Shown: positions 6,020 through 34,957, numbered from the stretch's first letter. The stretch: DNA of 64,000 bases from Synechococcus sp. (GCA_047285535.1 JBJBDC010000001.1:768136-832135); one strand, 5' to 3'. Made by a program: numbers and translations. Notes: a model not told the origin generated them from the letters alone.

Positions 6020-6538
6020 TCATGCGTTGGATTGCTCCTGCTGATCAGGGCTTGCTTGGAGTTTTGGATTGGTCTCAGCCAGCAGTGCCAACAACCATTC
6101 GATCCGTTGGAGACGTTGATCGAGTTTCATTTCAAGGCTGGTGAGCCGTTCTTCGAATTTCGTTTCACTGAGACCCTTGCTCCGGCTGCTGCTCGTGGTG
6201 GCTTTAACAGGCCAGGCACCGCTTTGACAGGTCTGAACAATCACCGCCCAGGTTGGTTTTTTAGGAGCGGGTCCGATCTGGTTTTCAATCCAAGCCTGTG
6301 CCTCCGCAACCTTGCCGAAGCGCTTTTTCAGCGCCGGCTGCTCGCATTCGTCGGCCGGTAAAAGACCTGCTGCTGCAAGGGCTTTACTGCCTGTTGCCCC
6401 CGGCTCCTCTGGAGGAATGAGGTCATCCACCATTTGCCGCACATGGCCGTTCTGTTCTCCGATGGTGCGATACAGATCAGCGTCACTCTTGGCCATTCGA
6501 GCCATGAGCTCAGCGAAGCGATTGCTGAGATCTCCCAT
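6020..6538 (-). CDS. Hypothetical protein with C-terminal coiled coil
   Basis: 172-aa ORF starting 1 bp after the upstream gene; its 3' half is conserved in a second copy at 24.7-24.98 kb. Confidence 0.7.
   Translation of the reverse strand: MGDLSNRFAELMARMAKSDADLYRTIGEQNGHVRQMVDDLIPPEEPGATGSKALAAAGLLPADECEQPALKKRFGKVAEAQAWIENQIGPAPKKPTWAVIVQTCQSGAWPVKATTSSSRSKGLSETKFEERLTSLEMKLDQRLQRIEWLLALLAETNPKLQASPDQQEQSNA
6022..6060 (+). repeat. Displaced DUF4336 5'-end scar (left half of core)
   Basis: ATG CGT TGG ATT GCT CCT GCT GAT CAG GGC (MRWIAPADQG); tcctgctgatcag is identical to 33787-33799. Confidence 0.6.
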
Positions 6539-6539
6539 G

Positions 6540-7040
6540 CTATTTGGAACCGCGAAGCAGCAGTTTCATCTGCTCAATCAGTTTGTTGATCTGAAGAATC
6601 GACCAGAAACCAGGGTGCTCTTTGGCCTCTTCCAGATCATGGAGCAACTCGTCTAGAGCTTGTTGTTTGTACTCAAATCCCTCCAGTTCTTTGTGCATGT
6701 CTTGAGCGAGACGCATGGCCTCTGCCTTTTCCTCTCCAATCGCCACCAAACGCTCTTCGTAAGTTCTCAATGTGTTGATGAAGTTCAGGCGAGCTTCGCT
6801 GAACTCCCTTGATCGCCGTTTCAGCTGGCCTCGGGAGCGCATGAGCGAGGCGTGGCTATTGCGCATTGCTTTGTAATGGTGATCCGCTTGCTCCGCAGTG
6901 AGTCCGGACAAATCCTTTGGAAAATCACTGGTGGAGCGAATGCCTTTGCATTCGATCTGTGGCTGAATCGCATTGGTGCTCAATGTCGTAATGGAACGAT
7001 TGAGTTGATCAGAATTGGCTTGCTGCAGATCCCCTGCCAT
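6540..7040 (-). CDS. Hypothetical coiled-coil protein
   Basis: 166-aa helical, charged ORF; operon-like with 6020-6538. Confidence 0.7.
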   Translation of the reverse strand: MAGDLQQANSDQLNRSITTLSTNAIQPQIECKGIRSTSDFPKDLSGLTAEQADHHYKAMRNSHASLMRSRGQLKRRSREFSEARLNFINTLRTYEERLVAIGEEKAEAMRLAQDMHKELEGFEYKQQALDELLHDLEEAKEHPGFWSILQINKLIEQMKLLLRGSK

Positions 7041-7354
7041 TGCGCAATTTGTTGAACTTCAAGTCTTTTTTCTATAGAAGCCACCCCTGAATTTGCAATG
7101 CTTCTCAGCATGAACTCAGGGAACTTTGAGGAAACAGTTTTGGCAGCGGTTGTCCTCGACAGCGCAAATACCCAGACCCTGATTCAATCCGTTGGAACCT
7201 ATTGCCATAGCAAGCTACGCCGCTCACGATCCGGGCACGATCACCTCCCATTCGAGGATCGTGGCGCGATTGGTTTTTCAAGGCCCATCAATATTGAAAT
7301 CACGCCCAAAACTGATCGGTCGCATAGGGCCGTAACGTGCCACCGACTGCACAT

Positions 7355-7393
7355 AGCGACAGCTGGCTACAGGTGATCAGGCGAGAGGGCATG
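7355..7393. repeat. 39-bp direct repeat, copy 2
   Basis: See 4154-4192; minus strand reads MPSRLITCSQLSL. Confidence 0.9.
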
Positions 7394-7410
7394 GGAGGGC
7401 TCAACCCTCC

Positions 7411-7857
7411 TTACGATGCCTCTGCCCCCCGGTTTTGCGCAGCCCCCACCTGAGGGAGTGAGTCCCTCTGGGACGTTGCTGTTTGCGGCGTGATGGCGTC
7501 ACAGCGATAGGTTTCAATCACCCCACGGCGCTGGCGGAACTCGGGATGGTCCTGGTCCAACGCCCGCCACCACCAGCGACCATCGGTGTAGCTGGGCACA
7601 CCAGTGTTATTGGTGCGGGGCAGCTGCAACGTGAGGCCGCGCCAGTGAATCAGCAGCCCATCGCCAGGCACGGTGCCGGCCGTTGTATTGGGAATCGGCG
7701 CCGCCAGGGCCCCCATCGCCTCCTGCCCGAGATCAATAATTTCCAAGCTGAGAGGGTCGCCCTCGCAGATCCAGTCCGCCGCCGCCGGCAGCGGTATCGC
7801 CAGCATCCACTGAAGGGTGAGCACCAGCCCTAGCAGGGCACGACAACAGCGGTTCAT
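7411..7857 (-). CDS. Hypothetical secreted protein
   Basis: Signal peptide ending AAA-D; LPRTNNTGVPSYTDGRWWW segment. Confidence 0.7.
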   Translation of the reverse strand: MNRCCRALLGLVLTLQWMLAIPLPAAADWICEGDPLSLEIIDLGQEAMGALAAPIPNTTAGTVPGDGLLIHWRGLTLQLPRTNNTGVPSYTDGRWWWRALDQDHPEFRQRRGVIETYRCDAITPQTATSQRDSLPQVGAAQNRGAEAS

Positions 7858-10757: not shown

Positions 10758-10822
10758 ATAGTCCGTGCAACTGAGGGCATCTCGCCAGACGAACAACCAT
10801 GGCCTGGTGGCCGCTGCTGCCT
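10758..10822 (+). repeat. Displaced DUF4336 5'-end scar / att-like site
   Basis: ATA GTC CGT GCA ACT GAG GGC ATC TCG CCA GAC GAA CAA CCA TGG CC- TGG TGG CCG CTG CTG CCT; tggtggccgctgctgcc is identical to 33809-33825; 27/31 identical to 29118-29148. Confidence 0.8.
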
Positions 10823-11069
10823 AGTGCAGCCCAGGATCAAGGACTCATTTCAGATGATTGCCCCTGAGCTGTGCCATTTAAAACTTACGCCACTGGTATC
10901 TGTGATGTGCAACTGAATGATTCCTCTCTTGGCGTAGCCGTCTCTCTTGATGGCTACGCATCAAGTCAAAGGAGTGTTTGCCGGGATCAATGGCAAGTCT
11001 GCGTTATGACCCACAAAACACCCCCAGAGGTCATCGATGATTCATGAGCTGAGGGCGTTCGTGAGCCCA

Positions 11070-12776
11070 TCAGTCAGACAGCGTTGGATTCGGGGTCATC
11101 GTCTTGTGCATGGTTTCAATCACCTCCTCCGCCAAAGGCTGGCTCTCTTCAGCAGGAATGAGCACTTCGAGGTAAGCCGCTCCTTGATGAGCACTGATTG
11201 CGGCCAATGCTTGCTCCAGTTCCGCAACGGTTGCAGCCCGGCCGCACCACCAACCCCTGCATCCAAGAACAGCGGGAATATCTGCGTAGCGCCAAGGGGG
11301 CAAATCGTTGTAGGCATGGCCCGTTTCACTGATCAACGCCTCTATCCCGTGCAGGCTATTGTTCAGAACGATCACCACAGGCTTGACCCCTGTGAAGCCC
11401 ATCACCCCGATCTCCTGCACCGTGAGCTGGTGGGCGCCATCACCGGTGACCAAAACGACCCGACGCTCGGGTTCAGCCAAAGCGCATCCCAGAGCGGCCG
11501 GTGTGCCCCATCCGATCGATCCCCAGAGGGTCTGACTTTCCATTGTCACGCCATCCGGTAATCGGATGGCGTTGAGTTTCAGAAGGCATGTGCCGGTATC
11601 CGACACCAAGAGGTCGTTGGGGCGAAGGAATTGCTGCAAGCGGGGGTAGAAGCTTGCTGAATCGGTGGGCTGATCTGGAGCTCCAAGAAGGGGCAGCATG
11701 GGAGCGGGCTGCACTGGTCGATGCTCTCCCCAATAGGAGAGGCGTTTCGACGCTGACTGAAAGCGTCTCGTCAGTCCTGCCAGGACATCACTGATGCTCA
11801 CACTCGTGAACACCTGATGACCGGCTTGGACCCAGTCGGCGTGCAAAGCAACGATCCGGTTGGGATCGAGTGACCCACTCCAAAGTCCTGTGTTGAGGTC
11901 CTCCAGCACCAACCCTCCAAGATCGATGAGCAGATCGGCCTCTTCCACCACGCTTTGGAGGGCAGCTGGGGTGGACCGACCACCGTTGTACATGCCAAGG
12001 AAAGCGGGGTGCTGCTCACTGAGCAGTGCCTTGTCCATGGGTGTCGTTGCATAGGCCAGGCCGGAGGCCTTGAGGAAATTCTCGAATGCATTCACCAGCC
12101 CGAAACGCTTCAGGGTGATGGTGGGGAGCACAACCGGAGATGATGCTGAGGCAATCCGTGCCTCCAGGAGATCAAGGACAGCCTCAAGTTCACCAGCAAC
12201 ACTGTCATGCTGGTCGATGACACCAAGAGGAGAGCCTTGGATGGGAGTCCCGGTGATCGGCATGAGAGCCAGATCCATCGGGAAGGTGAGGTAAGCAGGC
12301 CTGGATTCCTCCAGAGCTTTATCAATCACCCGCTCCAGTTCGATGACAGCGTTTTCAGGCGTGAGCCTGGCGCTGACACAGCTTGCAGAAGCGGAGATGG
12401 CCTCGAAGCGGTCATAGTTTCGATCGCCGAGGGTGTGATGACAGATGAGGCCTTGTCGCACGATCCGAAGACTGGGAGTGCCTACCAGATGAAACACGGG
12501 TAGACGTTCAGCCATGGCTCCCATCAGGCCATTGAGTGCACTCAGTTCGCCAACTCCATAAGTGGTGCAGACGATGGCAGCCCCTCGGCGGCGGGCATAG
12601 CCATCAGCCGCGAAAGCCGCATTCAGCTCATGAGCTGATGGCACCCAACTCAGCCTGGGATGCACCTCCACCGCATCGTTGATTGGAAAGGAATAATCGC
12701 CCGGTACACCAAACACGTGGCCAATTCCAAGATCAGCTAAGCGATCGAGGGCATAAGTCACCACAGAAGCAGTCAT
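11070..12776 (-). CDS. TPP-dependent alpha-keto acid decarboxylase (pyruvate/indolepyruvate decarboxylase family)
   Basis: FGVPGDY, AADGYAR, TTYGVGELSA, CHHTLGD, WGSIGW, GDGAHQLTVQE; alternative start at 12833. Confidence 0.92.
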   Translation of the reverse strand: MTASVVTYALDRLADLGIGHVFGVPGDYSFPINDAVEVHPRLSWVPSAHELNAAFAADGYARRRGAAIVCTTYGVGELSALNGLMGAMAERLPVFHLVGTPSLRIVRQGLICHHTLGDRNYDRFEAISASASCVSARLTPENAVIELERVIDKALEESRPAYLTFPMDLALMPITGTPIQGSPLGVIDQHDSVAGELEAVLDLLEARIASASSPVVLPTITLKRFGLVNAFENFLKASGLAYATTPMDKALLSEQHPAFLGMYNGGRSTPAALQSVVEEADLLIDLGGLVLEDLNTGLWSGSLDPNRIVALHADWVQAGHQVFTSVSISDVLAGLTRRFQSASKRLSYWGEHRPVQPAPMLPLLGAPDQPTDSASFYPRLQQFLRPNDLLVSDTGTCLLKLNAIRLPDGVTMESQTLWGSIGWGTPAALGCALAEPERRVVLVTGDGAHQLTVQEIGVMGFTGVKPVVIVLNNSLHGIEALISETGHAYNDLPPWRYADIPAVLGCRGWWCGRAATVAELEQALAAISAHQGAAYLEVLIPAEESQPLAEEVIETMHKTMTPNPTLSD

Positions 12777-13007
12777 CAAGTCGGCGTTGAGGATCACTTG
12801 GCGAGTCTGATTGTGGTCATCCCAGGGAGCCATGGGACACTCCGTGATGAGGTATTAAGAGTCACTTTTCAATGCGATGAGTTGTGGATTTTGCTTATGC
12901 ATGGGATTTGTGTTGTCTGCCCACAGACTTGCGGCGGGTTCAGCAAGAAACTGAGCACAGCTCGACTCCACTTCGGTGCAGAGTCGTGAGTAGAGAACCT
13001 GACCTGA

Positions 13008-13067
13008 GTGGCGGCACAGGGCATCCAATCGGTGGATCAGCACTGGCCCTGGCGGCCGCTGCTGCCA
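13008..13067 (+). repeat. Displaced DUF4336 5'-end scar / att-like site
   Basis: GTG GCG GCA CAG GGC ATC CAA TCG GTG GAT CAG CAC TGG CCC TGG CGG CCG CTG CTG CCA (MAAQGIQSVDQHWPWRPLLP). Confidence 0.85.
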
Positions 13068-14097
13068 GTCAGCAGTCTTTGATTGCAATGGTTTTAATGG
13101 ACATGTCTCTGAGCTATCCCTGTTCTTTGAGCAACTGGGCAGGATGGCGTGCAACTCCCAGTGGTTCAACCAAGCTTTGAATCCTGCTTCACAAATGATG
13201 GACCTAGACAACTAGCGCGTACCTCTCGAACTCTGGGACTTCTCCCCGATGACTCTTGGCGCGGTCATCACACCACCGCCGCAGCGCCATGGCGTCGTCC
13301 AAGGCGTCATCCAGGTCCTCAAAGTCCACCCCCCCATCACTTCGGTACGGTTGAGTCGAGCATGGATGGACCTGTGGATCCGGCCAAAGCCGCTGAGATG
13401 TGTCAGTTGTCGGAGCCTTGATCTGAGACAGCTGCGGCCATCCGCCGAATTGTCGGATGATCGAAGCGAATGAGGAGCACCTGCTGTGGCATCGACCAAC
13501 CGCACCTTGCTGAAGCGCCTGGCCGTGGATCTGGCTGAGCTTTGCAGTGATCCGGAGAATCTCGACTATGCCTTCGACCTGCTCAATGCCACCTATGGGA
13601 CTGAGGTGGCGCAGGCGGCACGCGACCGCCTCAAGAACGACCCGGACATCCGTCCGCTGGTGCAGGAGCGCTACTGGGGGAACTGGCCGGCACTGCCTGA
13701 GCTGGTGGCATTGCCGGCAGGATCGCTGGGCCATGTCTACGGCCTGTTCATCACATCGCAAGGACTGAGTGAACTGCCCGCTCCCGTGTTGCCCTCAGGG
13801 GTCGGAGGCGACGACGCCTACTTGCAGATGCGCATCCGCTACACCCACGATCTCTGGCATGTGATCGCCGGACTCCCCGTTAACCTCGCCGGAGAGGCGG
13901 CCGCCACCGGTCTCACCACCGAACAGCTGCGCTGGCCAGGAAGTGCACTCCTGATCGCTGCTGACCTGATCCATCGCGTCAGCACCACTGAAGCCGATGC
14001 CGAAGGAGACGTCGATGTGGGTGTGGCCATCGCCTACGGCCTCAACCTTGGGGCCCAGGCCCGCCCCCTGCTGGCCCAGCGCTGGGAGGAGGGCTGG
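13063..14097. repeat. ~1.03-kb near-identical direct repeat, copy 1 (copy 2 at 31461-32495)
   Basis: Offset 18398; I saw only one synonymous difference (ctc/cta aag). Confidence 0.95.
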
Positions 14098-14196
14098 CAG
14101 ACCCCTCTAAAAACCTGGCGGGAAGCGTTGGGGATCCGCACGCTTCTACGCCACAGCCCCTTCCCGTTGCTCACAGGTGAGATGCCGCGAAGCTGA
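13486..14196 (+). CDS. Coq4-family protein, copy A
   Basis: LPAGSLGHVY and HDLWHVIAGLPVNLAGE (HDxxH...E metal motif). Confidence 0.85.
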   Translation: MASTNRTLLKRLAVDLAELCSDPENLDYAFDLLNATYGTEVAQAARDRLKNDPDIRPLVQERYWGNWPALPELVALPAGSLGHVYGLFITSQGLSELPAPVLPSGVGGDDAYLQMRIRYTHDLWHVIAGLPVNLAGEAAATGLTTEQLRWPGSALLIAADLIHRVSTTEADAEGDVDVGVAIAYGLNLGAQARPLLAQRWEEGWQTPLKTWREALGIRTLLRHSPFPLLTGEMPRS

Positions 14197-14216
14197 CGCT
14201 GCCCAGCTCATCAGCG

Positions 14217-15093: not shown

Positions 15094-15309
15094 TTAGTGA
15101 TATTCCCCAGGGTGCTCCTGCTTCGAGACGGTCACTCGCCCCACCTTTTGGCCGGAGAAGCGCAGCAGCTCATCGCCTGAAAATTCAAAGCCCAGTCCAA
15201 AGGCGATGCGGGCCACATCATCGGCTGTGGAGGCTGCCAGCACCTGCTGCTTGAGGCTCTCCTCTTGCTGCATCTTTCGCAGGAATGCCTTGAGTTGATC
15301 GAGGGCCAC
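15094..15309 (-). CDS. Nif11-like leader peptide family protein
   Basis: QLKAFL..MQQEESLKQQVLAA...DDVARIA..GFEFSGDEL pattern. Confidence 0.85.
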   Translation of the reverse strand: MALDQLKAFLRKMQQEESLKQQVLAASTADDVARIAFGLGFEFSGDELLRFSGQKVGRVTVSKQEHPGEYH

Positions 15310-15386
15310 GGGGTGCTCGGCAGTGGGAAGATCATCGCTGATGGCAGCGGTGCGCCAGCATCAGCCCATTGATCAATGGCGCATCG

Positions 15387-15611
15387 ATGGGTCTGCAGCT
15401 GCAATCCGCTGAGTTCATCCACGAGGACGGGATCACCTATTGCATCCGCCGCGAGACCCTCGAGCAGGACTTCACCATCTACGAAAAGCGTGGTGAGGAA
15501 TGGGTTGATTGCGGCCTGGATCAGGCCGTCAAAGACGTGAACTTCGCTGAGTTCAAGCGTCTGGGCCTGTTGATCAAAAAAATCATGGATGCCGATCAGT
15601 GGCTCGCCTGA
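15387..15611 (+). CDS. Conserved small hypothetical protein
   Basis: 74-aa ORF with typical codon usage. Confidence 0.7.
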   Translation: MGLQLQSAEFIHEDGITYCIRRETLEQDFTIYEKRGEEWVDCGLDQAVKDVNFAEFKRLGLLIKKIMDADQWLA

Positions 15612-15627
15612 CGCGCCGCGCTTGAAC

Positions 15628-15867
15628 TCATTTGTGGCACTTGGCGCGAAAGCGATTCGATGGGTTGCTGGCGCCGTGTTTGGTCTTGCGGCCGCTCACC
15701 CGCTTGCGCCACAGCTTGAACGAGGAGGCCTTCATCGATTGACGCATCACCGCGATCACCTCCTGCTCAGAGAGGCCGAACTGGTAGTCGATCGCTTCAA
15801 AGCTGGTGCGGTCTTCCCAGGCCATCTCAATGATGCGATCGAGCTCTTCCGGTTCAAAGCTGCGCAT
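15628..15867 (-). CDS. TIGR03643/DUF2805 family protein
   Basis: DRIIEMAWEDRTSFEAI...FKLWRKRVSGRKTKH. Confidence 0.9.
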   Translation of the reverse strand: MRSFEPEELDRIIEMAWEDRTSFEAIDYQFGLSEQEVIAVMRQSMKASSFKLWRKRVSGRKTKHGASNPSNRFRAKCHK

Positions 15868-15871
15868 GGCT

Positions 15872-17131
15872 CTATCGGGCTGTTGCGGTCACCATCAGCC
15901 CGCTGCGCGGTGTGGGGCTCGGCAGCTGCTGCAGCGCTAGATCCTGTTCAGGGACCAGTTGCAGCTGCACCTTCTGCAGCAGGCCCACAGCCATCAGCCG
16001 GATCTCCAGTTCGGCCAATGCTTTGCCCAAACAGACGCGTTCGCCTGCTCCAAAGGGCAGCAGGGTTTGCTCAAACGAGCCATCGAGATGGCGTTGTGGG
16101 CGGAATTCGCTCAAATCCGTGCCGCTGGTGGCGGCTGTTGGCGTCAGCGCCACCTGGATCACGCTGTTTTCCGGCACCGCCACATCAGCCAGCTCAATGG
16201 CTTGCAAGCTGCGGCGGAAGAAGCCGGCCACTGGTGGTGTTTGCCGCATCACCTCCAAGACCGTGGCATCGAGCTTTTCGGATTGCGGTGATGTGGCCGC
16301 CGGCCACGGGGAAGCCATCACGTCGCTGCGGAGCCACTCCATCACCTCTGGATGCAAAAGCAAGGCGCGGAACAGGCAGCTCAGGGATGAGGCGGTGGTT
16401 TCGTAACCGGCAAACAGCAGCAGCAGCAGTTGCTCAGCCAGATCGGCATCATCGAGTGGAATGCCGGCTTCATCAAGGCCGCCGCTGATCAGATCCAGGC
16501 CGCCTTGGTTGCTCCCCTCTTTGAGCACCTCCTTGATGCGGTTCAGCAGCCGCTGGCGCGCGCCCATCGCTTTGGCAAAGGGGGTGCCAGGAATCGCCAG
16601 GGGAATCGAGAACAGGGCCTTGGTCCAGATCTCAAAATCTGCGAACAGCGCTTCCCTGCTTGCTGTATCGAGTCCCAGCACCGTGGTGGCGATCACGGCA
16701 AAGGCAAAGCGGCGCATGCGCCCGGCCAAGGGCACGGAGCCATCGGCACCGATCAGCTCATCAGCCAGCTCATCCACCAGGCCAATAATTGATGGGGTAT
16801 AGCGGGCGAGCGCTGCGCTGGAGAACAGCTGACCCACCACGCGCCGGCGGGCTTTATGGCCGGCTCCGCTGCGGTTGGCCAGGGAGCGGCTGCCCAGCAG
16901 TTTTTTGACGCTCTCAGGCCACCAGCCCTCTAACGACTCGCTTTGGCTGAACAGATCATTGATCGCCCGCTCACCGCGGATGAACACGATCGGCTGGGCC
17001 AGCAGCTTGGTGGCGAAGACATCGCCATAGGTTTCAAAGCGCCGTTGGGCAAAGCTCGGATCGCCAAAGAAATCGAGGGTTTCCTTCAGGCCGCTCACCG
17101 CACCGGTGTTGGGCAGAGGCTTGGCAGGCAT
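15872..17131 (-). CDS. Cytochrome P450
   Basis: AGYETT, EVMR, heme motif PFGAGERVCLG. Confidence 0.95.
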   Translation of the reverse strand: MPAKPLPNTGAVSGLKETLDFFGDPSFAQRRFETYGDVFATKLLAQPIVFIRGERAINDLFSQSESLEGWWPESVKKLLGSRSLANRSGAGHKARRRVVGQLFSSAALARYTPSIIGLVDELADELIGADGSVPLAGRMRRFAFAVIATTVLGLDTASREALFADFEIWTKALFSIPLAIPGTPFAKAMGARQRLLNRIKEVLKEGSNQGGLDLISGGLDEAGIPLDDADLAEQLLLLLFAGYETTASSLSCLFRALLLHPEVMEWLRSDVMASPWPAATSPQSEKLDATVLEVMRQTPPVAGFFRRSLQAIELADVAVPENSVIQVALTPTAATSGTDLSEFRPQRHLDGSFEQTLLPFGAGERVCLGKALAELEIRLMAVGLLQKVQLQLVPEQDLALQQLPSPTPRSGLMVTATAR

Positions 17132-17237
17132 GGACCCAAAGGCGCGCAGGCGATCAAGTTATCGATTCCGCTGGCCCTTCTGAGGCTGACATCAGATCCC
17201 TGGCTGGCTAGCTGTCGTGATGGAGATGGGCAGCCCC

Positions 17238-17495
17238 ATGGAATTGAAGATGCTGGTGATGGTTGTGGTGGCTCATGTTGCCAGTGCCTTTTTCAGCAAA
17301 ACCATCGCTGGGCAGAAGGCCCGCAGCAGCAAGAACTGGTTCTGGGCTGGGTTGATCTTTGGTCCGCTGGGGTTGATCGCTGCGGTGGGGTTGGCCGACC
17401 GCCATCAGATCGTGTATCTGCGGCATCTGGCTGAAACCCAGGGCTATGAGCCGCGCCATCAGTGCGGCGGCAAAGCGAAGCAAGAGTTTGAGTAA
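17238..17495 (+). CDS. Small membrane protein
   Basis: IAGQKARS..WFWAGLIFGPLGLIA; paralogous 3' remnant at 29161-29286. Confidence 0.7.
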   Translation: MELKMLVMVVVAHVASAFFSKTIAGQKARSSKNWFWAGLIFGPLGLIAAVGLADRHQIVYLRHLAETQGYEPRHQCGGKAKQEFE

Positions 17496-22750: not shown

Positions 22751-22761
22751 CCAGGCCGCTG

Positions 22762-24000
22762 ATGCGCTCAGGATTTCTCAAAGCCCTCGGACCGGGAATT
22801 GTTCTGTCGGCGGCATCGATCGGTGGTTCCCATCTGGTCGCCTCAACCCAGGCGGGAGCTCTCTACGGATTGGGTCTGTTGGGGTTGCTGCTTCTCGCCA
22901 ACCTTTTCAAATATCCCTTTCTGTTGATCGGCAGCCGTTTCACCGCAGTAACCGGCCGCAGTCTTTTGGAGGGCTATCAGCACCAGAGCCCATGGTTTCT
23001 ACCGCTCTACCTGCTGATCACCCTCAGCACGGGAGTTGCCAACATCGCAGCTGTCAGCTCCTTGGCTGGCAGCTTGGCGACTGCGTTGGTTCCAGGCTCC
23101 CCGCAGGCTCTGGGATTACTGGCACTGTCGATCTGCCTAGTGGTGTTGCTGCTGGGGCAATACCGCAGCCTGGATCGGCTCAGTAAGGCAGTCGTGGCTC
23201 TACTGGTTTTGTGCACCCTGGTGGCAGCTGTGGCGACCTTGATCCGTGGCCCAGCCGCTGGTTTTGCCGTGATGTTCACCCCCAGCCCCTGGACCTGGGG
23301 CTCCTTGCCGTTTCTGGTTGCTCTGTTGGGGTGGATGCCATGCCCGCTGGATCTGTCCGCCTGGACATCGCTTTGGATTTATGCCCGAGAACAGGATTCA
23401 GGCCATACAAGCAGCCGCTCTGAAGTGGAGGCTGATTTCAACATCGGTTATGCCGCGACGGTGCTGATGGCGGTGTTGTTTCTGGTGCTGGGAGCGTGGG
23501 TGATGCATGGCACCGGGACGGAGTTTTCCCAGGCTGGAGCAGCCTTCTCCCAGCAGCTCATCGAGCTTTACACCGTCAGCTTGGGAGCTTGGGCCTATCT
23601 CTTGATTGCACTGGCAGCGCTGTTGACGATGTTCAGCACGGTGCTCACCTGCCTTGATGGCTACCCGCGCTCGGCGTCTGCATCGGTTCGATTGCTGCAA
23701 GGTCATCGCGGCATGGCCGTGCTGAACAACAGCAACCAGCGGCTTTGGATGCTGCTGCATTTCGCCTTGGCCTCTGCTGTCCTTCTGTGGTGGTCTGGTT
23801 CGATGGGTGCGCTGGTCACCTTGGCGATGTGGGTGTCGTTTGTGACCACACCGGTTCTGGCATGGATGAATTGGCGGGTGATGCAGAGCCGTCAAGTTGC
23901 CCCTCAAGACCGATTTGGCCCGGCCATGAGCTGTTTGGCTGCGATCAGTCTCGGCGTGCTGAGCCTGTTTGTTGTTCTTTTCGGAATCAGCATTGTTTGA
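22762..24000 (+). CDS. NRAMP-like divalent metal transporter
   Basis: LGPGI..AASIGGSHLV.STQAGA, GWMP.PLD, MFST.LT.LDGYPR; about 11 TM segments. Confidence 0.85.
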   Translation: MRSGFLKALGPGIVLSAASIGGSHLVASTQAGALYGLGLLGLLLLANLFKYPFLLIGSRFTAVTGRSLLEGYQHQSPWFLPLYLLITLSTGVANIAAVSSLAGSLATALVPGSPQALGLLALSICLVVLLLGQYRSLDRLSKAVVALLVLCTLVAAVATLIRGPAAGFAVMFTPSPWTWGSLPFLVALLGWMPCPLDLSAWTSLWIYAREQDSGHTSSRSEVEADFNIGYAATVLMAVLFLVLGAWVMHGTGTEFSQAGAAFSQQLIELYTVSLGAWAYLLIALAALLTMFSTVLTCLDGYPRSASASVRLLQGHRGMAVLNNSNQRLWMLLHFALASAVLLWWSGSMGALVTLAMWVSFVTTPVLAWMNWRVMQSRQVAPQDRFGPAMSCLAAISLGVLSLFVVLFGISIV

Positions 24001-24453
24001 GGTTCAGGAGTGCGCAGTTTTTCTTCCCAGCGCTTGTGTTCTGTGAACTGGATGGTTCTGCTTCAGTTCGCCAAACGGATATCCGGGCCACCACCTTTGC
24101 GGGAGGAAGGTGGGGTGAGGCGGCGGCCATTGATGGTGCCTATCGCCGACAGCAGTAACCAAATGAGTCGCGACAACATTGCGGCGTTGGAACCCGCCTG
24201 GGCGGCGAAGAATGGCCGGCTCCTGTCAGTTCTGTTGCAACCGCGACAGGCGGAAGGGCATGAGAACGGGAATGATCAGCACAGTTATTTTTTGACCGAT
24301 GGGATTCCTTGCTGTTGCTGGTTGCATGCTTTTGGCCACTGCCATGTCCACAGCTTTGACCAGCAAGCCTTCGAAAGCCTGAGGTTGGGAGGGGGCGAGC
24401 TTGTCGGCGGCCCCCAACAGATCAGGCCAGCTTCAAAACAAAGCGCTGAACAG

Positions 24454-24559: not shown

Positions 24560-24696
24560 GCGGCAACCGGCGTGGCCAGTGATGCTGTTTAGCGCCGGGG
24601 TGGGTGGTTTGGCCCTGGCCTGATCCATTCCTCTGCAGAATCAGTGCATTGATGGGGAGCTTGGTGGCTGGAGCTGGTGTGAATCCTGCTGATCAG
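24560..24696 (+). repeat. ~137-bp displaced copy of the DUF4336 leader and first 12 codons
   Basis: Matches 33661-33799; the start ATG is TTG at 24661. Confidence 0.95.
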
Positions 24697-28329: not shown

Positions 28330-28986
28330 AAGAGGTTTGAGAGCGCTCCCAAAGGCCCAGGATGATGCGGTGTATTTCTGCGGGGTCGACCGGTTATCCC
28401 TGCACTGCTGCTGGTTCCTTGTAAGCGTTTTCTTGACCCGGATTCAGTCTTTTCCCATCCGTTGCGCTATCCACAAGAGGCATGCCGCAGAGATGGAATC
28501 GCGCCGGCTTCTGGCTTCTCCTGGCCAATGTTGGATCCATTTCATTAGGTTTTCACAGCTGGTGGCTCGACCGTTCTGATCGCTGAGCCATTGCACGCAG
28601 GATTTCACCCTTCGTGCAGCATGTTTCTCGGAATTTGCCGAGGCTTCGATTCGGTTCAGTCCTTTCCGCTGATAGACGCCCAATGAACTTCGTACTGGAC
28701 CGCCTGCGTTGCGCCTGATGTCTTTGTCGAAGTTCGCCAGTGCCTGGTCGACTGCTCTTGAGATCGCAACATCGGGATCTTCGGAGGTGGAGGTCAGCTT
28801 CAGCCACTTCTGATCGCCCGATCCGTGAGCTCGGGTGTTGAAGGAGAGGTCGATCAGGTCTTCCCCTGACGGCCTGGTTTTTCGTCGTAACGAGAGGCCG
28901 TATCGATCAGAGTGAATGGGACGGAGATACTTGGAGAGTCACTTCAGCCTTGCGTTGTTACGGCGTTGCCCAGTCGTCTCTGTCAT
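28330..28986 (-). pseudogene. Decayed tyrosine recombinase/integrase N-terminal part, catalytic domain missing
   Basis: ATG 28986, TGA at codon 16, then ~165 open codons (GLSLRRKTRPSGEDLIDLSF...LMKWIQHWPGEARSRRDSISAACLLW), then a frameshift to ...AYKEP..*PVDPAEIHRII; resembles arm-binding plus core-binding regions of cyanobacterial integrases. Confidence 0.55.
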
Positions 28987-29101
28987 CTAGGAACAACGCT
29001 GTACATCCGCCAATTTTTTCCCTGAATTGTCCCTAAAACCACTTGCACAAGGTTTTGCCCACATGCACAAAAAGAGTCCATGGACACAGCTGATTTGAGT
29101 G

Positions 29102-29161
29102 ATGGCAGGCAATCTGAGTGAAACTGAGGGCATCTCCCGAGACGATCAGGGCTGGCCCTGG
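29102..29161 (+). repeat. Displaced DUF4336 5'-end scar / att-like site next to the integrase
   Basis: ATG GCA GGC AAT CTG AGT GAA ACT GAG GGC ATC TCC CGA GAC GAT CAG GGC TGG CCC TGG (MAGNLSETEGISRDDQGWPW). Confidence 0.8.
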
Positions 29162-29286
29162 CTGATCGACATCAAATCGTCTACCTCAGTCACCTAGCGG
29201 AAAGCCAGGGCTATGTCCGGCGCCGAAGCTGCGGTGGCAAAGATGCCCAAGACAACTCACAGAAGCAAAGCGGAGACGATCACTGA
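29161..29286 (+). pseudogene. 3' remnant of a small membrane protein (paralog of 17238-17495)
   Basis: ADRHQIVYLSHLAESQGY..CGGK vs ADRHQIVYLRHLAETQGY..CGGK. Confidence 0.8.
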
Positions 29287-29298
29287 GGCATAGAGGGA

Positions 29299-29880
29299 TC
29301 AACCATCAACCAGACCGTGCAATTTGGCGAAAGTCGCAACCTGATCTGCCAGCTCGGGGCTGACCCATTGGGCAATCACCGCCAAGGACATGTCGATCCC
29401 TGCCGAGACTCCCGTCGAGCTGAAGAATTTTCCATCTTCCACCCAACGCGCTTGTTTCTCCCACTGCACCAAGGAGCTCTGGAACGTCACCCAATCGAAG
29501 GCCATCTTGTTGGTGGTGGCACGTACCCCATCCAGCACAGCGGCTTTGGCAAGTAGGGCACTGCCGGTGCAGACGGAGGTCACGAGAGTGGCGCGCTGCG
29601 ACTGATCCCTCAACCAATCCAACAGCAGCTGATTGCCAACCTCCTGCCGTGTGCCTGGTCCGCCCGGAACCAGCAGCAGCTCGAAGCCAAGAACATCACG
29701 GAAGGAACAATCCGTGATGTTCTTGGGCCCCTGGCGGCTGGCGATCACGCCGCCAGGCTCACAGACCAGGCGGATGTCGAAATGGTCTGCTGCCATTCCA
29801 TACATTTCCAGTGGACCAAGGACATCAAGAAGTTCAAAACCTTCAAAGCGAAGAACTCCGATGCTTCGTTTGTTGGACAT
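29299..29880 (-). CDS. DJ-1/PfpI family protein, copy B (C-terminally shortened)
   Basis: Same motifs as 17710-18336; lacks EYDWH..DPFA. Confidence 0.85.
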   Translation of the reverse strand: MSNKRSIGVLRFEGFELLDVLGPLEMYGMAADHFDIRLVCEPGGVIASRQGPKNITDCSFRDVLGFELLLVPGGPGTRQEVGNQLLLDWLRDQSQRATLVTSVCTGSALLAKAAVLDGVRATTNKMAFDWVTFQSSLVQWEKQARWVEDGKFFSSTGVSAGIDMSLAVIAQWVSPELADQVATFAKLHGLVDG

Positions 29881-29954
29881 TGGCTAGTCCTCACGAGTGG
29901 ATGACGCCTTACAGCTGGTGCAAGCGGCCGTTGCCAAGGCTGCTGGCCTGGAGA

Positions 29955-30665
29955 TCAGAGCCGAGTACCGCTGCGGTTAGCACTGGCGGGTTCGCTGATC
30001 GGCACTCCTGGCCTCCAATGCTGCACAGAGAACGTTTGATTTGGGGCCGGGATGCCGCTTGCTGGTGGCTTGATCTGACTGCGCCAGCCGCTGGTCCACT
30101 TGATCATCACGCTGCCATTGTCCCGGAGCGACCAGGAGCCATCAGCCACTTGATCGATGTTGTTGAAAGCCATTCCCGAGGAGGTGAGCACCGCGAGATA
30201 AGGGGGTTTCTCGGGCTGGCTTGGCTGCAGTTTGTACGCTCCCACCCAAGCCGAGATCGGACGAGTGAGTTGCACCGCCTTGCCGTGATTACTGGGGCCT
30301 CCATTCAGTGAGGCACCAGGTTTCCACGACCACTGGACCAGACCGGCCGGGCCGAGTTGAATCGTGTCGGTCCAACCGTCTCGATAGGTCGAGCGGATGC
30401 CGTTACCCCAGGCCTGCCAGCTGCCGGTCTCCAACAGCTGATTACGCGTCATGCGTTGCGGCTCTCCAAGATCGGGATGACGTTTGCCGATCACTGTGAG
30501 CGAAGAGCCATCGGCTCGCAGGATCAGATTGAACGGCACATTGTCATTGTCGGTAAGCACCCAGGTACCCAGCATGCGTTTGGCATCGGGCTGAGGAAAA
30601 CCAGCCCCGAGAAGTGCGCCACACAGCAAGAGTGCAGCAGGGGCTTTTACCCAGAAGAGGCCCAT
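29955..30665 (-). CDS. Hypothetical secreted protein
   Basis: Signal peptide; two GxW-type beta-rich repeats. Confidence 0.7.
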   Translation of the reverse strand: MGLFWVKAPAALLLCGALLGAGFPQPDAKRMLGTWVLTDNDNVPFNLILRADGSSLTVIGKRHPDLGEPQRMTRNQLLETGSWQAWGNGIRSTYRDGWTDTIQLGPAGLVQWSWKPGASLNGGPSNHGKAVQLTRPISAWVGAYKLQPSQPEKPPYLAVLTSSGMAFNNIDQVADGSWSLRDNGSVMIKWTSGWRSQIKPPASGIPAPNQTFSVQHWRPGVPISEPASANRSGTRL

Positions 30666-30888
30666 GTCAGTTCGGTTGATTCCCTTGGTTTAGCAGCAGT
30701 GCACACAAGCCACCGCAGGCTCAGGAAACACAGGCAAGTGGGTGGTTCTACTCAAGTGCTTCAAATGGTTATCAACAGCACGATCAGACTTGAACAGCGA
30801 AGAGCACATTGAGAGTGCTGGGGCATCAATCGGTGATCATCACCATGTTGACGCCGGCCTTGAAAACAGACACCGAAATGCTGCTGTT

Positions 30889-31320
30889 ATGGACTCGCTG
30901 ACTGCTTTTGCTGCCATTGGATTGACAGCTGTGGCTTGGGATGGCTCGCTCACTCCAGCGGGGGGACGGGCCTTCCGCCATGCGCTCGATTACCGCGAGC
31001 CCTACTGCAACATGCGTGAGCAATCCATGGTTGATCTCATCGATTGCCTCCTGACACGTCGCCGTGAAATCGGTAACAACGCGCTCATGCTTGAAGCGGC
31101 TCAGGCGCTGAACAGCAGCCAATCACTCACCGCTTACGCCATGGCATCAGAGTTGATGCGATCTGACGGACCTTACGAGCCCGAGGAACGCCAACATCTG
31201 GATCATCTGGCTCTGGTTCTCTCGATTGCCAAACCGGAATCCGATCGTATCGATTCGGTGTTTGATGTCTTGCACAATCAACTGAAGCTCTGGTCTGAGC
31301 TGCAAACACAACCAGCCTGA
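30889..31320 (+). CDS. TerB-family (tellurite resistance-like) protein
   Basis: AVAWDG...AYAMASELMRSDG.YEPEER..LDHLA..LSI. Confidence 0.8.
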   Translation: MDSLTAFAAIGLTAVAWDGSLTPAGGRAFRHALDYREPYCNMREQSMVDLIDCLLTRRREIGNNALMLEAAQALNSSQSLTAYAMASELMRSDGPYEPEERQHLDHLALVLSIAKPESDRIDSVFDVLHNQLKLWSELQTQPA

Positions 31321-31408
31321 AGATCCTGAATCTTCAGGACGATGACGTCAACGACAGCGCCTTGATTAAGGGTGCAAGAGGTGATATCGGCGGAACTGAA
31401 GATCAAGC

Positions 31409-31465
31409 ATGGGTGCAGATAGCGATCCAGCTGATCAACGCTGGGCCTGGTGACCTCTGATGCCA
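31409..31465 (+). repeat. Displaced DUF4336 5'-end scar / att-like site
   Basis: ATG GGT GCA GAT AGC GAT CCA GCT GAT CAA CGC TGG GCC TGG TGA CCT CTG ATG CCA (MGADSDPADQRWAW*PLMP). Confidence 0.85.
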
Positions 31466-32495
31466 GTCAGCAGTCTTTGATTGCAATGGTTTTAATGGAC
31501 ATGTCTCTGAGCTATCCCTGTTCTTTGAGCAACTGGGCAGGATGGCGTGCAACTCCCAGTGGTTCAACCAAGCTTTGAATCCTGCTTCACAAATGATGGA
31601 CCTAGACAACTAGCGCGTACCTCTCGAACTCTGGGACTTCTCCCCGATGACTCTTGGCGCGGTCATCACACCACCGCCGCAGCGCCATGGCGTCGTCCAA
31701 GGCGTCATCCAGGTCCTCAAAGTCCACCCCCCCATCACTTCGGTACGGTTGAGTCGAGCATGGATGGACCTGTGGATCCGGCCAAAGCCGCTGAGATGTG
31801 TCAGTTGTCGGAGCCTTGATCTGAGACAGCTGCGGCCATCCGCCGAATTGTCGGATGATCGAAGCGAATGAGGAGCACCTGCTGTGGCATCGACCAACCG
31901 CACCTTGCTGAAGCGCCTGGCCGTGGATCTGGCTGAGCTTTGCAGTGATCCGGAGAATCTCGACTATGCCTTCGACCTGCTCAATGCCACCTATGGGACT
32001 GAGGTGGCGCAGGCGGCACGCGACCGCCTAAAGAACGACCCGGACATCCGTCCGCTGGTGCAGGAGCGCTACTGGGGGAACTGGCCGGCACTGCCTGAGC
32101 TGGTGGCATTGCCGGCAGGATCGCTGGGCCATGTCTACGGCCTGTTCATCACATCGCAAGGACTGAGTGAACTGCCCGCTCCCGTGTTGCCCTCAGGGGT
32201 CGGAGGCGACGACGCCTACTTGCAGATGCGCATCCGCTACACCCACGATCTCTGGCATGTGATCGCCGGACTCCCCGTTAACCTCGCCGGAGAGGCGGCC
32301 GCCACCGGTCTCACCACCGAACAGCTGCGCTGGCCAGGAAGTGCACTCCTGATCGCTGCTGACCTGATCCATCGCGTCAGCACCACTGAAGCCGATGCCG
32401 AAGGAGACGTCGATGTGGGTGTGGCCATCGCCTACGGCCTCAACCTTGGGGCCCAGGCCCGCCCCCTGCTGGCCCAGCGCTGGGAGGAGGGCTGG
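31461..32495. repeat. ~1.03-kb near-identical direct repeat, copy 2
   Basis: See 13063-14097. Confidence 0.95.
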
Positions 32496-32594
32496 GAAAC
32501 CCCTCTCGATGGGTGGCGCAAGAGGCTCGGCATCTACTCGCTGCTGCAGACCACCCCGTTTCCGCGGCTGCACGGGGAGGCGGCAGACGGTTGA
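31884..32594 (+). CDS. Coq4-family protein, copy B
   Basis: Identical to copy A up to ...EEGW; last ~32 residues diverged. Confidence 0.85.
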   Translation: MASTNRTLLKRLAVDLAELCSDPENLDYAFDLLNATYGTEVAQAARDRLKNDPDIRPLVQERYWGNWPALPELVALPAGSLGHVYGLFITSQGLSELPAPVLPSGVGGDDAYLQMRIRYTHDLWHVIAGLPVNLAGEAAATGLTTEQLRWPGSALLIAADLIHRVSTTEADAEGDVDVGVAIAYGLNLGAQARPLLAQRWEEGWETPLDGWRKRLGIYSLLQTTPFPRLHGEAADG

Positions 32595-32623
32595 TGTTGT
32601 AGTGACCATTGCCGACTTGAAGA

Positions 32624-32656
32624 GATCAGTGATGGCCTTGGTTTCCGCTGCTGCTT
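32624..32656 (+). repeat. Displaced DUF4336 5'-end scar / att-like site
   Basis: GAT CAG TGA TGG CCT TGG TTT CCG CTG CTG CTT (DQ*WPWFPLLL). Confidence 0.8.
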
Positions 32657-32870
32657 CTAGCAAGCGACAAACTGATTATGGGGTTGAAAGCTGGTCACTA
32701 AGTTCCCGAGAGTTGTGTGTGCAAGTGGACGTGATCAAAGGCAACTCGGGACAATGTGAAGGCCATACTCAAAAACGAAGCAGTGAAAACCTATTCGCGA
32801 AAGATGTATAAACGAGCCTCTTGCGTGGTCTTGTGTATGACGACTGCTTGATCATGTTCGTAGTCTGTGA

Positions 32871-33251
32871 CTACATCCTGGGCAAGCAAAAATCAACAGT
32901 TAGTACGCCGTTCATGCCGCCTTCGATGAGTGGAATCATTACTGGGGATAAATCAAGATGAGGTTTTGACGTGTCATATGAAATGCGACAACTTTTGTTT
33001 TCAAAGACAATAAACAAACAGTGATTGTAACCCCTGGCCAAAAATGTCGCATCAGACGAAATACCGAAGGTATCTACAATTTCCTGCGGGAAGTTAAACG
33101 TTTCCAAGGGGCCGGCGTGGGCTAATTCAACCCCTGGGATTCTGGTTTTGAATGACTTAACCTGCTTGTCCACATCTGTAATTGCAATTGGACTCACGTC
33201 TTTCTTGATTTTCCAAAGGCCAATGTGAATAATTTTGGATGATGACATCAT
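32871..33251 (-). CDS. Dabb-family stress-responsive alpha/beta barrel protein
   Basis: IIHIGLWKIK...IPGV...GYNHCLFIVFE....Y...PH...VDF. Confidence 0.75.
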   Translation of the reverse strand: MMSSSKIIHIGLWKIKKDVSPIAITDVDKQVKSFKTRIPGVELAHAGPLETFNFPQEIVDTFGISSDATFLARGYNHCLFIVFENKSCRISYDTSKPHLDLSPVMIPLIEGGMNGVLTVDFCLPRM

Positions 33252-33763
33252 CGAATCATTTTTTCTGTTCTGCGTTGACATTCCTCTGGCTTCCCGTGGA
33301 TGATGCCTCTGGGACAAAGAGGCTGTTCTTGCAACCCTATGTGCTCTTTGAATGCCAGGGTGCCGTTTTAAAGACCATTAGTACCTGACCTCAGTTAGGT
33401 CTTCTGCCTTGAGTGGCTGCTGCTGACAGTCTGGATTCTCTAATTGCGGGGGTTGAGTGAAGCGAACCCTAAATCCCCCCCTTTTTCTTCAGCTTGGCTT
33501 GATTCTGTGAAAGTGAACCTTTTGAAGCGACTGACTTGTTTGTGACGCAATTGCTTTCTTGGGTGGAGTAAGCGTTGGCGATCGTTTATGGAAGGTGTGC
33601 CCCAGCGTTGAGCCTTCACTTCAGCCTGGCGTTGGTGGCGTTTGTTCTGTTGGTGAGTTAGCGGCAACCGGCGTGGCGTGTGGTGCTGTTTTTTGCGCCG
33701 GAGTGGGTGGTTTGACCCTGGCCTGATCCATTCCTCTGCAGAATCACTGCATTGACGGGGAGC

Positions 33764-34957
33764 ATGGTGGCTGGAGCTGGTGTGAATCCTGCTGATCAGC
33801 GTTGGGGTTGGTGGCCGCTGCTGCCGCTCTATCCCTATGGAAGGCGTGCCACCCACTTTGAAGAGCTCATCCCGGGCCAGGTATGGAGCTTTGAACAGCT
33901 CCAGGGCGTCTATTACGTGGCTGTGCCGATTCGGCTCACCGTGGTGAAGGTGCCCGGCGGCTTGATGCTGGTCAACCCACTGCCACCAACACAGGAATTA
34001 TGTGCCGGCTTAGCGGACCTTGAAGCTCAGCACGGATCGGTCTGCACGATTGTGTTGCCGACAGCGTCAGGTCTGGAACATAAGTTTCCGCTGGGGCCAC
34101 TGGCTCGTGCTTTCCCTGAAGCCGAGATCTGGGTCTGCCCTGGCCAGTGGAGTTTCCCCGTGCAGCTGCCCCTGAACTGGCTCGGAGTACCGGCAGCACG
34201 CACCAAAGTTTTGCTCACGGATGGGGTGCCCCATCCCGAGATGTGCCAATGGATCTCCCTTGGCCCTCTTGATCTCGGCGTGGGTCGTTTCCAGGAAATC
34301 AGCTGCCTGCATCGACCCAGTGGCGCCTTGCTGATCACCGATGCCCTGGTTGGCATTCACGCCCAACCCCCAGCCATTTTTGATCGCGATCCCACGCCGT
34401 TGTTGTTTCACGCTCGCAACCGTGGCGATCAACCCCTGATGGATTCAACCGAGGCACGGCGGCGAGGATGGGCCCGTCTGGTGCTGTTCGCCTCCTATCT
34501 GCGGCCCTACAAATTGCGTGTACCAGGCCTCGCCGAGTTGTTGCGCCATGCATTCCGGCCGGGATTACGAACAGGGAAAGCCCACTTCGGGCTTTATCCA
34601 TTCGATTGGCAAGACGGCTGGCACGATGATGCCATGAACCTGATGGGTGAAGAAGAAGCCAAATTACAAGTGGCTCCTGTTCTGGAACGACTGGTATTGC
34701 CGAGAGCACAACGGGCCCTCATCGCCTGGCTGGAACAACTGGAATCATGTTCTGATCTTGCCTGGCTGATCCCTGCCCACTACAGCGCACCTCTGCCATT
34801 CACGGCATTGCAGGCATCCGCTTTGCAAACGGACTTGCGACACAAGGCCTGGGCAACAAACGAAGGCAACTGGACCTTTCTTGCCAATATTGATCAACGT
34901 CTTTTAGAACTTGGATTTGTACCAGACGATCCTCTTAAAAAGAAATATTCAAATTGA
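33764..34957 (+). CDS. DUF4336 domain protein (metallo-beta-lactamase-like fold)
   Basis: WWPLLPLYPYGRR, VPIRLTVVK, TASGLEHK, IPAHY. Confidence 0.85.
   Translation: MVAGAGVNPADQRWGWWPLLPLYPYGRRATHFEELIPGQVWSFEQLQGVYYVAVPIRLTVVKVPGGLMLVNPLPPTQELCAGLADLEAQHGSVCTIVLPTASGLEHKFPLGPLARAFPEAEIWVCPGQWSFPVQLPLNWLGVPAARTKVLLTDGVPHPEMCQWISLGPLDLGVGRFQEISCLHRPSGALLITDALVGIHAQPPAIFDRDPTPLLFHARNRGDQPLMDSTEARRRGWARLVLFASYLRPYKLRVPGLAELLRHAFRPGLRTGKAHFGLYPFDWQDGWHDDAMNLMGEEEAKLQVAPVLERLVLPRAQRALIAWLEQLESCSDLAWLIPAHYSAPLPFTALQASALQTDLRHKAWATNEGNWTFLANIDQRLLELGFVPDDPLKKKYSN

Follow-up and report, generated by a model that had tools for sequence, protein, structure and literature searches.

A candidate integrase-linked cassette array at the 5' end of a DUF4336-family gene in Synechococcus

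The 5' coding region of a DUF4336-family gene in Synechococcus is very probably a site of integrase-driven insertion, to judge from comparison of the window with related genomes. The window, the whole stretch of DNA analysed here, covers 64,000 nucleotides of Synechococcus sp. (GCA_047285535.1 JBJBDC010000001.1:768136-832135, or G000:C1:768136-832135), part of a closed 3.03-Mb genome, with housekeeping genes to the right of 33.7 kb and mixed cargo to the left, running past the window's left edge. At this boundary stands the DUF4336 gene, preceded by an array of cassettes separated by displaced copies of its own 5' end. The target, the arms that flank it and the fixed position of a linked integrase are demonstrated below by alignment across genomes. 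We put a probability of about 0.72 on the overall explanation, in which this integrase acts at DUF4336, a visiting element carries it, cassettes lacking an integrase travel with that element and the array later erodes.

Attachment sites upstream of DUF4336

What does a displaced 5' end consist of? It joins an old gene start, a core shared with the intact gene and a non-coding arm of about 90 bp made of direct repeats, here called the P' arm. A block of 14 identical bp (core positions 19-32, codons 18-21; 33812-33825 at the native gene), with 4-5-bp inverted repeats around 7 bp, forms the right end of the core and is where exchange falls, not at codon ~11 as the earlier note on this DNA had proposed. 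All 48 displaced cores stop at core position 32, followed at a fixed distance by the conserved arm, and position 33 is A in 43 of these 48 (picked by the intact-gene model) versus G in 15 of 16 intact genes. Intact integrase carriers all supply the same kind of DUF4336 start (MAGDLSATEGIS-like, hereafter element-type), with the reading frame open, and between it and the integrase lies a second arm, the P arm. Both arms carry the same two repeat types (in the P arm a TRTCCCT-type pair is direct and a TGTGCAACTGG-type pair inverted). Core-plus-arms arrangements of this sort are the attP layout of lambda-type integrases, which the sites fit, with the arm repeats as putative binding sites; on this anatomy we read the displaced 5' ends as attL scars. 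A serine-integrase reading was dropped because the dyad centre is odd (7 bp) and the linked enzyme is of the tyrosine type.

The target gene and the sites derived from it in the window, located with a position weight matrix (PWM) and with the core-plus-arm model described below, are these:

33764..34957, plus strand: DUF4336-family target gene (PF14234, E 3.7e-113, over residues 41-354 of the open reading frame (ORF) from 33752)
33661..33825, plus strand: current 5' end of the gene (VAGAGVNPA type, without P arm) and core, the presumed attB
33404..33515, plus strand: decayed attL, right half-core and worn arm (E 2.1e-5, right-half rank 53)
32624..32749, plus strand: partly decayed attL (PWM rank 4, model E 1.3e-12)
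31409..31556, plus strand: attL with MGADSDPA-type 5' end, core and intact P' arm (PWM rank 3, E 2.7e-20)
29102..29161, plus strand: element-supplied 5' end (MAGNLSETEGISRD-DQ), core broken at position 18
28987..29101, plus strand: P arm at the element end, bounded by the start of the integrase and the new start of DUF4336
28331..28986, minus strand: remnant of the 407-amino-acid tyrosine recombinase, with an internal stop, a frameshift and the C-terminal part missing
24560..24696, plus strand: VAGAGVNPA-type displaced 5' end, truncated behind core position 6 and preceded by its upstream region (92% identical to 33661-33799 over 139 bp)
13008..13158, plus strand: attL with displaced VAAQGIQSV-type 5' end, full core and intact P' arm (PWM rank 2, E 4.2e-22)
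10760..10915, plus strand: decayed attL with element-type (…ATEGIS…) 5' end and decayed P' arm (88-91% to intact element-type 5' ends)
6013..6048, plus strand: probable truncated displaced 5' end in element-type start context, cut after core position 6

The earlier note had named a core at 33794-33825 and ten displaced copies. The core is present, with full copies at 13035 (6 mismatches), 31433 (7) and 32624 (7), and a search of both strands of the whole genome that allows up to 7 mismatches brings up nothing but these four. The PWM, trained solely on intact-gene cores from 15 other genomes, ranks the same four and a site at genome position 753342, 14.8 kb left of the window, as its top five, all on the plus strand. 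Eight of the ten copies hold up. Besides the three full copies, the firm ones are 10791 (right 16 nt exact, a 1-nt deletion in the left half and a decayed arm; model E 1.5e-6) and two certain sites, 24691 and 29144, the latter cut through deletion at a short shared stretch. The site at 33404 survives as a decayed one that has lost the left half of its core, and 6043 is probable but truncated and not firm: its left half ranks 13 by PWM in the genome, 23 nt before the shared 13-mer stands a 12-mer that is unique in the genome and shared with element-type starts, and the site overlaps the end of a minus-strand ORF (6020-6538). The proposed copies at 14209 and 25431 lie at background level (PWM ranks ~10,900 and ~9,400). 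The N-terminal translations given earlier were reproduced, with ATA as the start at 10758; upstream of 32624 there are in-frame stops.

These sites extend well beyond one strain. A protein search of 41 genomes returned short matches to the first ~20 residues of DUF4336, upstream of the gene and on the same strand. The core-plus-arm model, built on a gapless alignment of 42 sites from 14 genomes, matches 36 of 46 genomes of the genus, including 22 of the 32 outside training; the genomes are mutually related and such counts are not independent. Arrays hold up to 14 sites across 67 kb. In 21 single-contig genomes the model yields 82 hits, of which 3 are the gene itself, 78 lie upstream (within 67 kb) and 1 lies elsewhere; with 81 of 82 hits at or upstream of DUF4336 and the PWM's top five on one strand, the cores are neither genome-wide nor spread over both strands. 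A sample of the family gave matches in 22 of 151 genomes and 5 of 36 genera, several weak ones of which may be DUF4336 itself.

A few sites depart from the pattern. The sole attL away from the DUF4336 locus among the 82 hits (G015:C1:2270108-2270214) is similar to a G011 site. The G024 array (sites at -19390, -16378 and -8003) has two inverted sites, and the identical arms of those at -19390 and -16378 point to inversion or inverted duplication at att sites. In G002 (-2613), G004 (-2691) and G008 (-17211), P' arms are joined to one common non-DUF4336 sequence, a fusion that we read as an old secondary-site insertion or deletion.

The linked integrase

Searches with PF00589 (46 genomes) and PF00239 (5 genomes) found no recombinase inside the arrays. 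Clustering of 506 ORFs found a 407-amino-acid protein, without Pfam or PHROG match, directly upstream of DUF4336 in G014 and G050. It is intact in 9 of 401 family genomes, and all nine copies start exactly 157 bp from the intact-gene core and face away from it, into the element. Among 16 metagenome loci, 6 extend far enough upstream and DUF4336 is there in all 6 (two pairs are near-identical); one extra genome contig likewise shows the integrase beside DUF4336, and two named records, probable duplicates, were excluded. The named homologues come from Synechococcus. A full P arm at an intact gene is accompanied in 11 of 11 cases by an intact or remnant integrase.

The window holds a remnant of this protein (28986-28331), which, like the conserved ~90-bp arm, the earlier note had overlooked. 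Compared with the intact G014 protein, it has 82% amino-acid identity over residues 1-182 and 71% over 174-222; it lies 158 bp from the 29144 core and is single-copy in the genome. The P arm between them contains TRTCCCT-type repeats in direct orientation and the arm 11-mer twice in inverted orientation, matches the arm model on the minus strand, and aligns with nine intact elements (88% to the G014 proximal end). A deletion of ~270 bp at 29102..29161, seen by comparison with the G018 site at -3840, took away the next P' arm.

Tyrosine recombinases share the catalytic set R-K-H-R-H/W-Y, and all 22 aligned proteins have R241, R357 and Y390, while nearly all have K272. A fold search with the structure model of the integrase places lambda Int, XerA/D and Cre on top. 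Its Atlas neighbours carry XisAC domains in 11-83% of members, with integrase domains also among their annotations, and 7 of 18 distant homologues have weak Phage_integrase matches. Its profile aligns with a core-genome Phage_integrase protein (E 5e-6, 230 columns), a comparison not significant with single-sequence profiles, and shows no relationship to five other integrases. The 407-amino-acid protein is the likely enzyme, a putative tyrosine recombinase of an XisA/C-related picocyanobacterial group.

Other recombinases were met on the way. The core-genome protein had been considered as the main enzyme and was dropped after the linked integrase was found, and a PF00589 match 20 kb from the G002 site belongs to a different family. 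A 339-amino-acid tyrosine recombinase at G000:C1:1937715-1938305 resembles an integron integrase (IntI); the IntI-like protein of this genome does not align with the 407-amino-acid integrase. Distant relatives of the 407-amino-acid integrase (24-27%) at four loci (L149, L150, L151 and L152) share the non-canonical motif described below and have no tRNA close by; two of these loci adjoin response-regulator-like genes, and those two relatives may target other protein genes.

Movement of elements and cassettes

The intact element in G050 spans 5,985 bp and consists of the P' arm, a 986-amino-acid ORF with primase- and helicase-like motifs recognised by eye, terS (PHROG E 1.9e-12, as in G294), a 69-amino-acid helix-turn-helix-like ORF, an ORF of no assigned type and the integrase; neither the 986- nor the 69-amino-acid ORF matched a library. 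By gene content it appears to be satellite-like, and the carriers G014, G154 and G044 differ from it in gene content. G050 and G294, which belong to different genera, share the element at 99.8% identity; beyond the core on the right, two successive drops bring this to 84 and to ~72 per 100 nt. Contigs from four sequencing runs, three of them flagged as possible sources, cover the element end to end at ~99% and break at the cores. One contig from one run joins the empty site, a weak case with a 22-letter side and a likeness of 90.

Most cassettes lack an integrase, as the earlier note had held: among 113 core-to-core units (G024 being excluded owing to its inversion), 6 have an intact integrase, always in proximal position, 4 a remnant and 103 none. 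The size it had given, ~1-5 kb, also agrees with the median of 3.8 kb (67 of 96 at most 5 kb). Whole-length counterparts in another genome exist for 32 of the 113 units, and 14 of 25 scorable whole-cassette pairs exceed the identity of their hosts' DUF4336 bodies by at least 10 points. Integrase-less cassettes are found again at full length, with the same pair of ends and at 85-96% identity, in hosts whose DUF4336 genes are ~70% identical. One shared by G002 and G043 runs at 92-96, falling to 84 and then 74 at the core; another, of 13.1 kb, is proximal in G016 and in G050 is the next unit behind the intact element (95.7% versus 68.9%). From the window, 29139-31436 recurs in G018 at 94% and 29139-33418 in G046 at 87%. 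As predicted earlier, breakpoints between strains coincide with cores: of 266 alignment ends, 60 are no more than 60 bp from a crossover in both genomes, set against a random single-genome rate of 0.038, with the limits that the pairs are non-independent and some ends are fixed by the region limits chosen. Taken together, these comparisons show elements and integrase-less cassettes spreading horizontally with their boundaries at the core, as far as sequence can tell.

The start of the gene changes with its neighbours. Among 39 intact genes, eight N-terminal types were distinguished by eye, and in 16 of the 26 pairs whose gene bodies match at 88% or more the two genes have different types, in line with the earlier expectation that N-termini and upstream neighbours vary. 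The types are scattered on the gene-body tree (at least 8 changes for the element type, 6 for the VAGAG type) and their labels are more clustered than in shuffles (16 versus 20.3 changes). The swapped N-terminal part and the target motif lie upstream of the PF14234 domain, and no donor sequence was carried over into the DUF4336 body in discordant pairs. We hold the earlier reading, of cassettes delimited by displaced DUF4336 starts, to be supported because all three outcomes it had named as fatal (equal hits genome-wide on both strands, breakpoints away from cores, invariant N-termini and neighbours) failed to appear on testing. Serial integration of each cassette by itself, as it further proposed, is just one possible route among several.

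A model for the array and its alternatives

How would integrase-less units come to stand in a row? In the explanation we favour, the tyrosine integrase would target codons 18-21 of DUF4336. One end of its element would consist of integrase, P arm and replacement gene start, the other of the P' arm, so that integration would fuse the old start to P' (attL) and rebuild the gene with the element's start (attR). The element would be a visitor, occasionally excising with a more distant attL and taking along the intervening integrase-less cassette or cassettes. Such a composite would enter a new host, integrate and later excise at the nearest attL, leaving behind the cassette and, on DUF4336, the cassette's own 5' end. 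The array would afterwards be worn down and rearranged by two processes, deletion where short sequences are shared and recombination between homologous cargo (29144, 24691 and the Coq4 duplication being candidate instances). G050, with the 13-kb cassette, attL, element and gene in that order, and G016, with the cassette directly on the gene, would represent the two predicted states, in either direction. We consider it somewhat better than an even bet that this piggyback route is the main source of integrase-less cassettes. Each insertion would also swap the promoter; a promoter scan of 33450-33830 found no sigma-70 consensus.

Several observations weigh against this explanation. No excised circle or free attP turned up in exact-pattern scans of viral and metagenome contigs, and integrase scans of viral contigs gave no relative. 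Decay of sites with distance from the gene is weak (rho -0.22; the proximal site is better than the distal in 19 of 23 arrays), the age gradient is not present in the window array, and hosts with large arrays, G000 included, are mostly without an intact integrase. The enzyme itself is atypical: the two usual histidine positions are R354 and T381, a non-canonical set; its structure model has a mean predicted local distance difference test (pLDDT) score of 72.6 and a predicted template modelling (TM) score of 0.45, with pLDDT below 50 in the catalytic C-terminus; and only one match of the fold search reaches E 0.001, at TM 0.24. Element-type starts without a P arm, found at 6 intact genes and ~14 displaced sites, also show that deletion of the integrase makes integrase-less units.

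That last process, taken as the sole route, amounts to classical tandem accretion, in which every cassette came with an integrase and later lost it together with the P arm. It is the model described for tRNA islands in a preprint on them (bioRxiv 10.1101/2020.12.28.424599), and the integrase remnants in the window, G093, G136 and G378, as well as the P-arm-less element-type starts, speak for it. Yet 92 of 97 displaced sites lack the P-arm motif and only 1 has a full P arm, so the displaced starts, most of them not element-type, resemble target-type ends and not stripped element ends. No intact integrase was seen in a non-proximal cassette, and the recurrence of integrase-less cassettes between hosts far less alike requires transfer after integrase loss; as the only route, tandem accretion is disfavoured and improbable. 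Could the cassettes instead excise alone, in the manner of integron-like satellites (attL x attL or attL x target), relying on a trans-acting enzyme, either the integrase of a co-resident element or the core-genome recombinase? They are unit-bounded, their order changes between strains, their P' arms remain well conserved, nearly every genome has a related recombinase and the inverted sites of G024 hint at attL x attL recombination. A P arm, retained at every integrase-adjacent end, would be missing from such circles, and since nearly all displaced starts have none, no full attP would form alone; nor is there any link between the core recombinase and the DUF4336 sites. No circle was seen: the four runs contain no circle joint (the assemblies break at the repeated core and are silent on excision either way), and 19 contigs have no terminal repeats. 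We regard independent excision as about as doubtful as tandem accretion.

Homologous recombination, anchored in the DUF4336 body or in the ~110-bp att homology, might also have driven the array after an integrase seeded only the first repeats. The 1-kb duplication in the window stops inside Coq4 homology, many junctions are short-homology deletions, and RecA-type transfer of tandem fragments is reported elsewhere (PMC13651849). The absence of donor carry-over into the gene body and the fixed junction position, with its A/G switch at core position 33, make this very improbable as the driving force; exchange between internal att homologies probably contributes.

Cargo and island setting

The remaining features of the window are cargo:

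11070..12833, minus strand: decarboxylase-family cargo dependent on thiamine pyrophosphate (TPP) (80-88% identical modules in other arrays)
13063..14108, plus strand: copy A of the 1-kb duplication, P' arm and most of Coq4 (99% to 31461-32506)
13486..14196, plus strand: Coq4-family gene A, its C-terminus chimeric relative to B (Pfam Coq4, translations)
15247..18328, no strand assigned: P450 and DJ-1/PfpI cargo module (87% to G015 and G011 arrays; Pfam)
22690..24106, plus strand: Nramp cargo module (91% to the G019 array; Pfam)
29162..31464, no strand assigned: cassette that holds DJ-1/PfpI and two genes of unknown type and has the MGADSDPA-type 5' end as its last part (94% to G018, 89% to G016 and G044, 87% to G046)
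31884..32594, plus strand: Coq4-family gene B (Pfam; the whole 1.19-kb cassette recurs in G046 at 82%)
32871..33317, minus strand: Dabb-like stress protein cargo, at Pfam threshold (E 2.8e-5)

Three statements of the earlier note about this cargo proved correct. The decarboxylase gene (Pfam TPP_enzyme N, M and C) lies between 10791 and 13035, Coq4 gene B lies between 31433 and 32624, and the duplication (13035-14108 against 31433-32506, 99%) starts near the right edge of the core; its identity begins at core position 29, the last left mismatch being at position 28, and stops inside the Coq4 gene. A paralogous module occurs twice (6036-7256 and 24684-25351, 86-94%), the second copy with a 540-bp internal deletion, and both copies start at a truncated core.

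The island reaches at least 57 kb from DUF4336. Left of the window lie a further displaced 5' end (G000:C1:753262-753363) and an additional decayed arm (G000:C1:745386-745479), together with type I restriction-modification genes and a 1162-amino-acid helicase/RNase H-like gene (G000:C1:755856-766715; a similar helicase stands directly behind the intact integrase in G154 and G044) and a trio of methyltransferase, flavoprotein and type III polyketide synthase genes (G000:C1:738138-741101), also upstream in at least 7 other genomes. The island's left part also has another repeat family (75-85%) that is not related to the DUF4336 core (window 4062-4192 and 7355-7522, genome 766600-766845). Elsewhere in the window, a 557-bp stretch (42544-43100) matches genome 1638546-1639102 at 98% and has partial copies in 3 more places, possibly a small mobile or repeated element, and the 5' part of an SLH/OprB porin gene (52487-53009) is 93-98% identical to at least 8 other places in the genome, likely through gene conversion among porin genes. 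The target motif, found in 11 of 12 distant cyanobacterial DUF4336 loci examined, is an old protein constraint. DUF4336 sequence clusters are cyanobacterial, which, with the Synechococcus origin of the integrase's named homologues, suggests a host of marine Synechococcus type. As far as the comparison reached, the array-free genomes G042, G045 and G047 differ upstream of DUF4336, and no ancestral left neighbour of the gene emerged.

Relation to known systems

The best reading of our analysis is that the system would work like tycheposon accretion combined with end restoration of the dusA/prfC type. Tycheposons (bioRxiv 10.1101/2020.12.28.424599) share with it an inward-facing site-specific tyrosine integrase at one end, an integrase related to a core-gene integrase, partial target copies scattered through the island and, on our model, a transient habit that leaves cargo behind; the PICI-like (phage-inducible chromosomal island-like) ones combine a replication gene with terS, as does the G050 element if its eye-recognised motifs mark a replication gene. 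In that preprint 474 of 501 tycheposons sit at island-associated tRNA or tmRNA genes, seven of which are named, whereas the target here is the DUF4336 5' coding region, with no tRNA gene in the window or in the 14 loci scanned; and where imprecise excision is proposed for tycheposons, the leftover cargo here comes in precise att-bounded units. Its accessible text mentions non-tRNA integrases without naming their targets, and these might include the 407-amino-acid family. Tycheposon-like insertions at tRNA-Phe in marine Synechococcus (PMC8995045) involve the same host group, iterative integration at one site and a target remnant beside a tyrosine recombinase, but, as described there, a tRNA target, a recombinase at the distal end and no N-terminus replacement.

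Elements at dusA, and SXT at prfC (PMC8409611), likewise integrate at the 5' end of a protein gene, bringing a new promoter (one that in our case would be predicted) and an altered N-terminus, and 5'-end restoration of that type appears here as an in-frame element-type start in all intact carriers. For elements of this type there is a report of a single tandem. They differ in occurring in Gammaproteobacteria, in being conjugatively mobilised and in each having its own integrase, and the portion of that paper available to us describes no long arrays of integrase-less cassettes and no shared pool of alternative N-termini. Tandems of a phage with an integrative and conjugative element (PMC13651849) offer a precedent for piggybacking, with site-specific accretion and joint excision by one member's integrase; there both partners are large autonomous elements and transfer is by conjugation.

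Integrons are ordered arrays of site-bounded cargo with one proximal insertion site and exchange between species. The ordered, site-bounded and promoter-independent-looking cargo units here are similar, also in their single proximal site and their exchange across species, but integrons use attC hairpins, unlike the double-stranded lambda-type core and arms inside a coding gene, and most arrays here have no resident integrase and contain multi-gene units of 1-19 kb; no PF00589 match that could be a resident IntI was found inside the arrays of 46 genomes.

Our literature search found no description of this DUF4336 integration site, with the limits that the gene may go under another name and that subscription journals were mostly outside the search; the term DUF4336 returned three papers, unrelated by title and abstract start.

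Recognisable elements make up the smaller part of picocyanobacterial island DNA, and for the arrival of the rest the tycheposon preprint offers capture of flanking DNA as no more than a hypothesis (bioRxiv 10.1101/2020.12.28.424599). At the DUF4336 site the steps leave readable scars, so that one can trace over dozens of genomes which cargo units are present, in what order they stand and which donors they came from, and a capture model can be tested with one enzyme and defined arms of 110-160 bp. The work names a major tRNA-free island hotspot and a recombinase family that Pfam and PHROGs miss; the native integration site with its integrase may be useful for engineering marine Synechococcus. 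Tentatively, at somewhat less than even odds, we suggest that lineages of marine Synechococcus have in common a cross-genus pool of integrase-less, att-bounded cassettes, moved with precision into and out of a single protein-coding site by a visiting phage satellite with a non-canonical recombinase. If true, this would be an integron-like system without a resident integrase, in which each swap would reset the promoter and N-terminus of a conserved gene.

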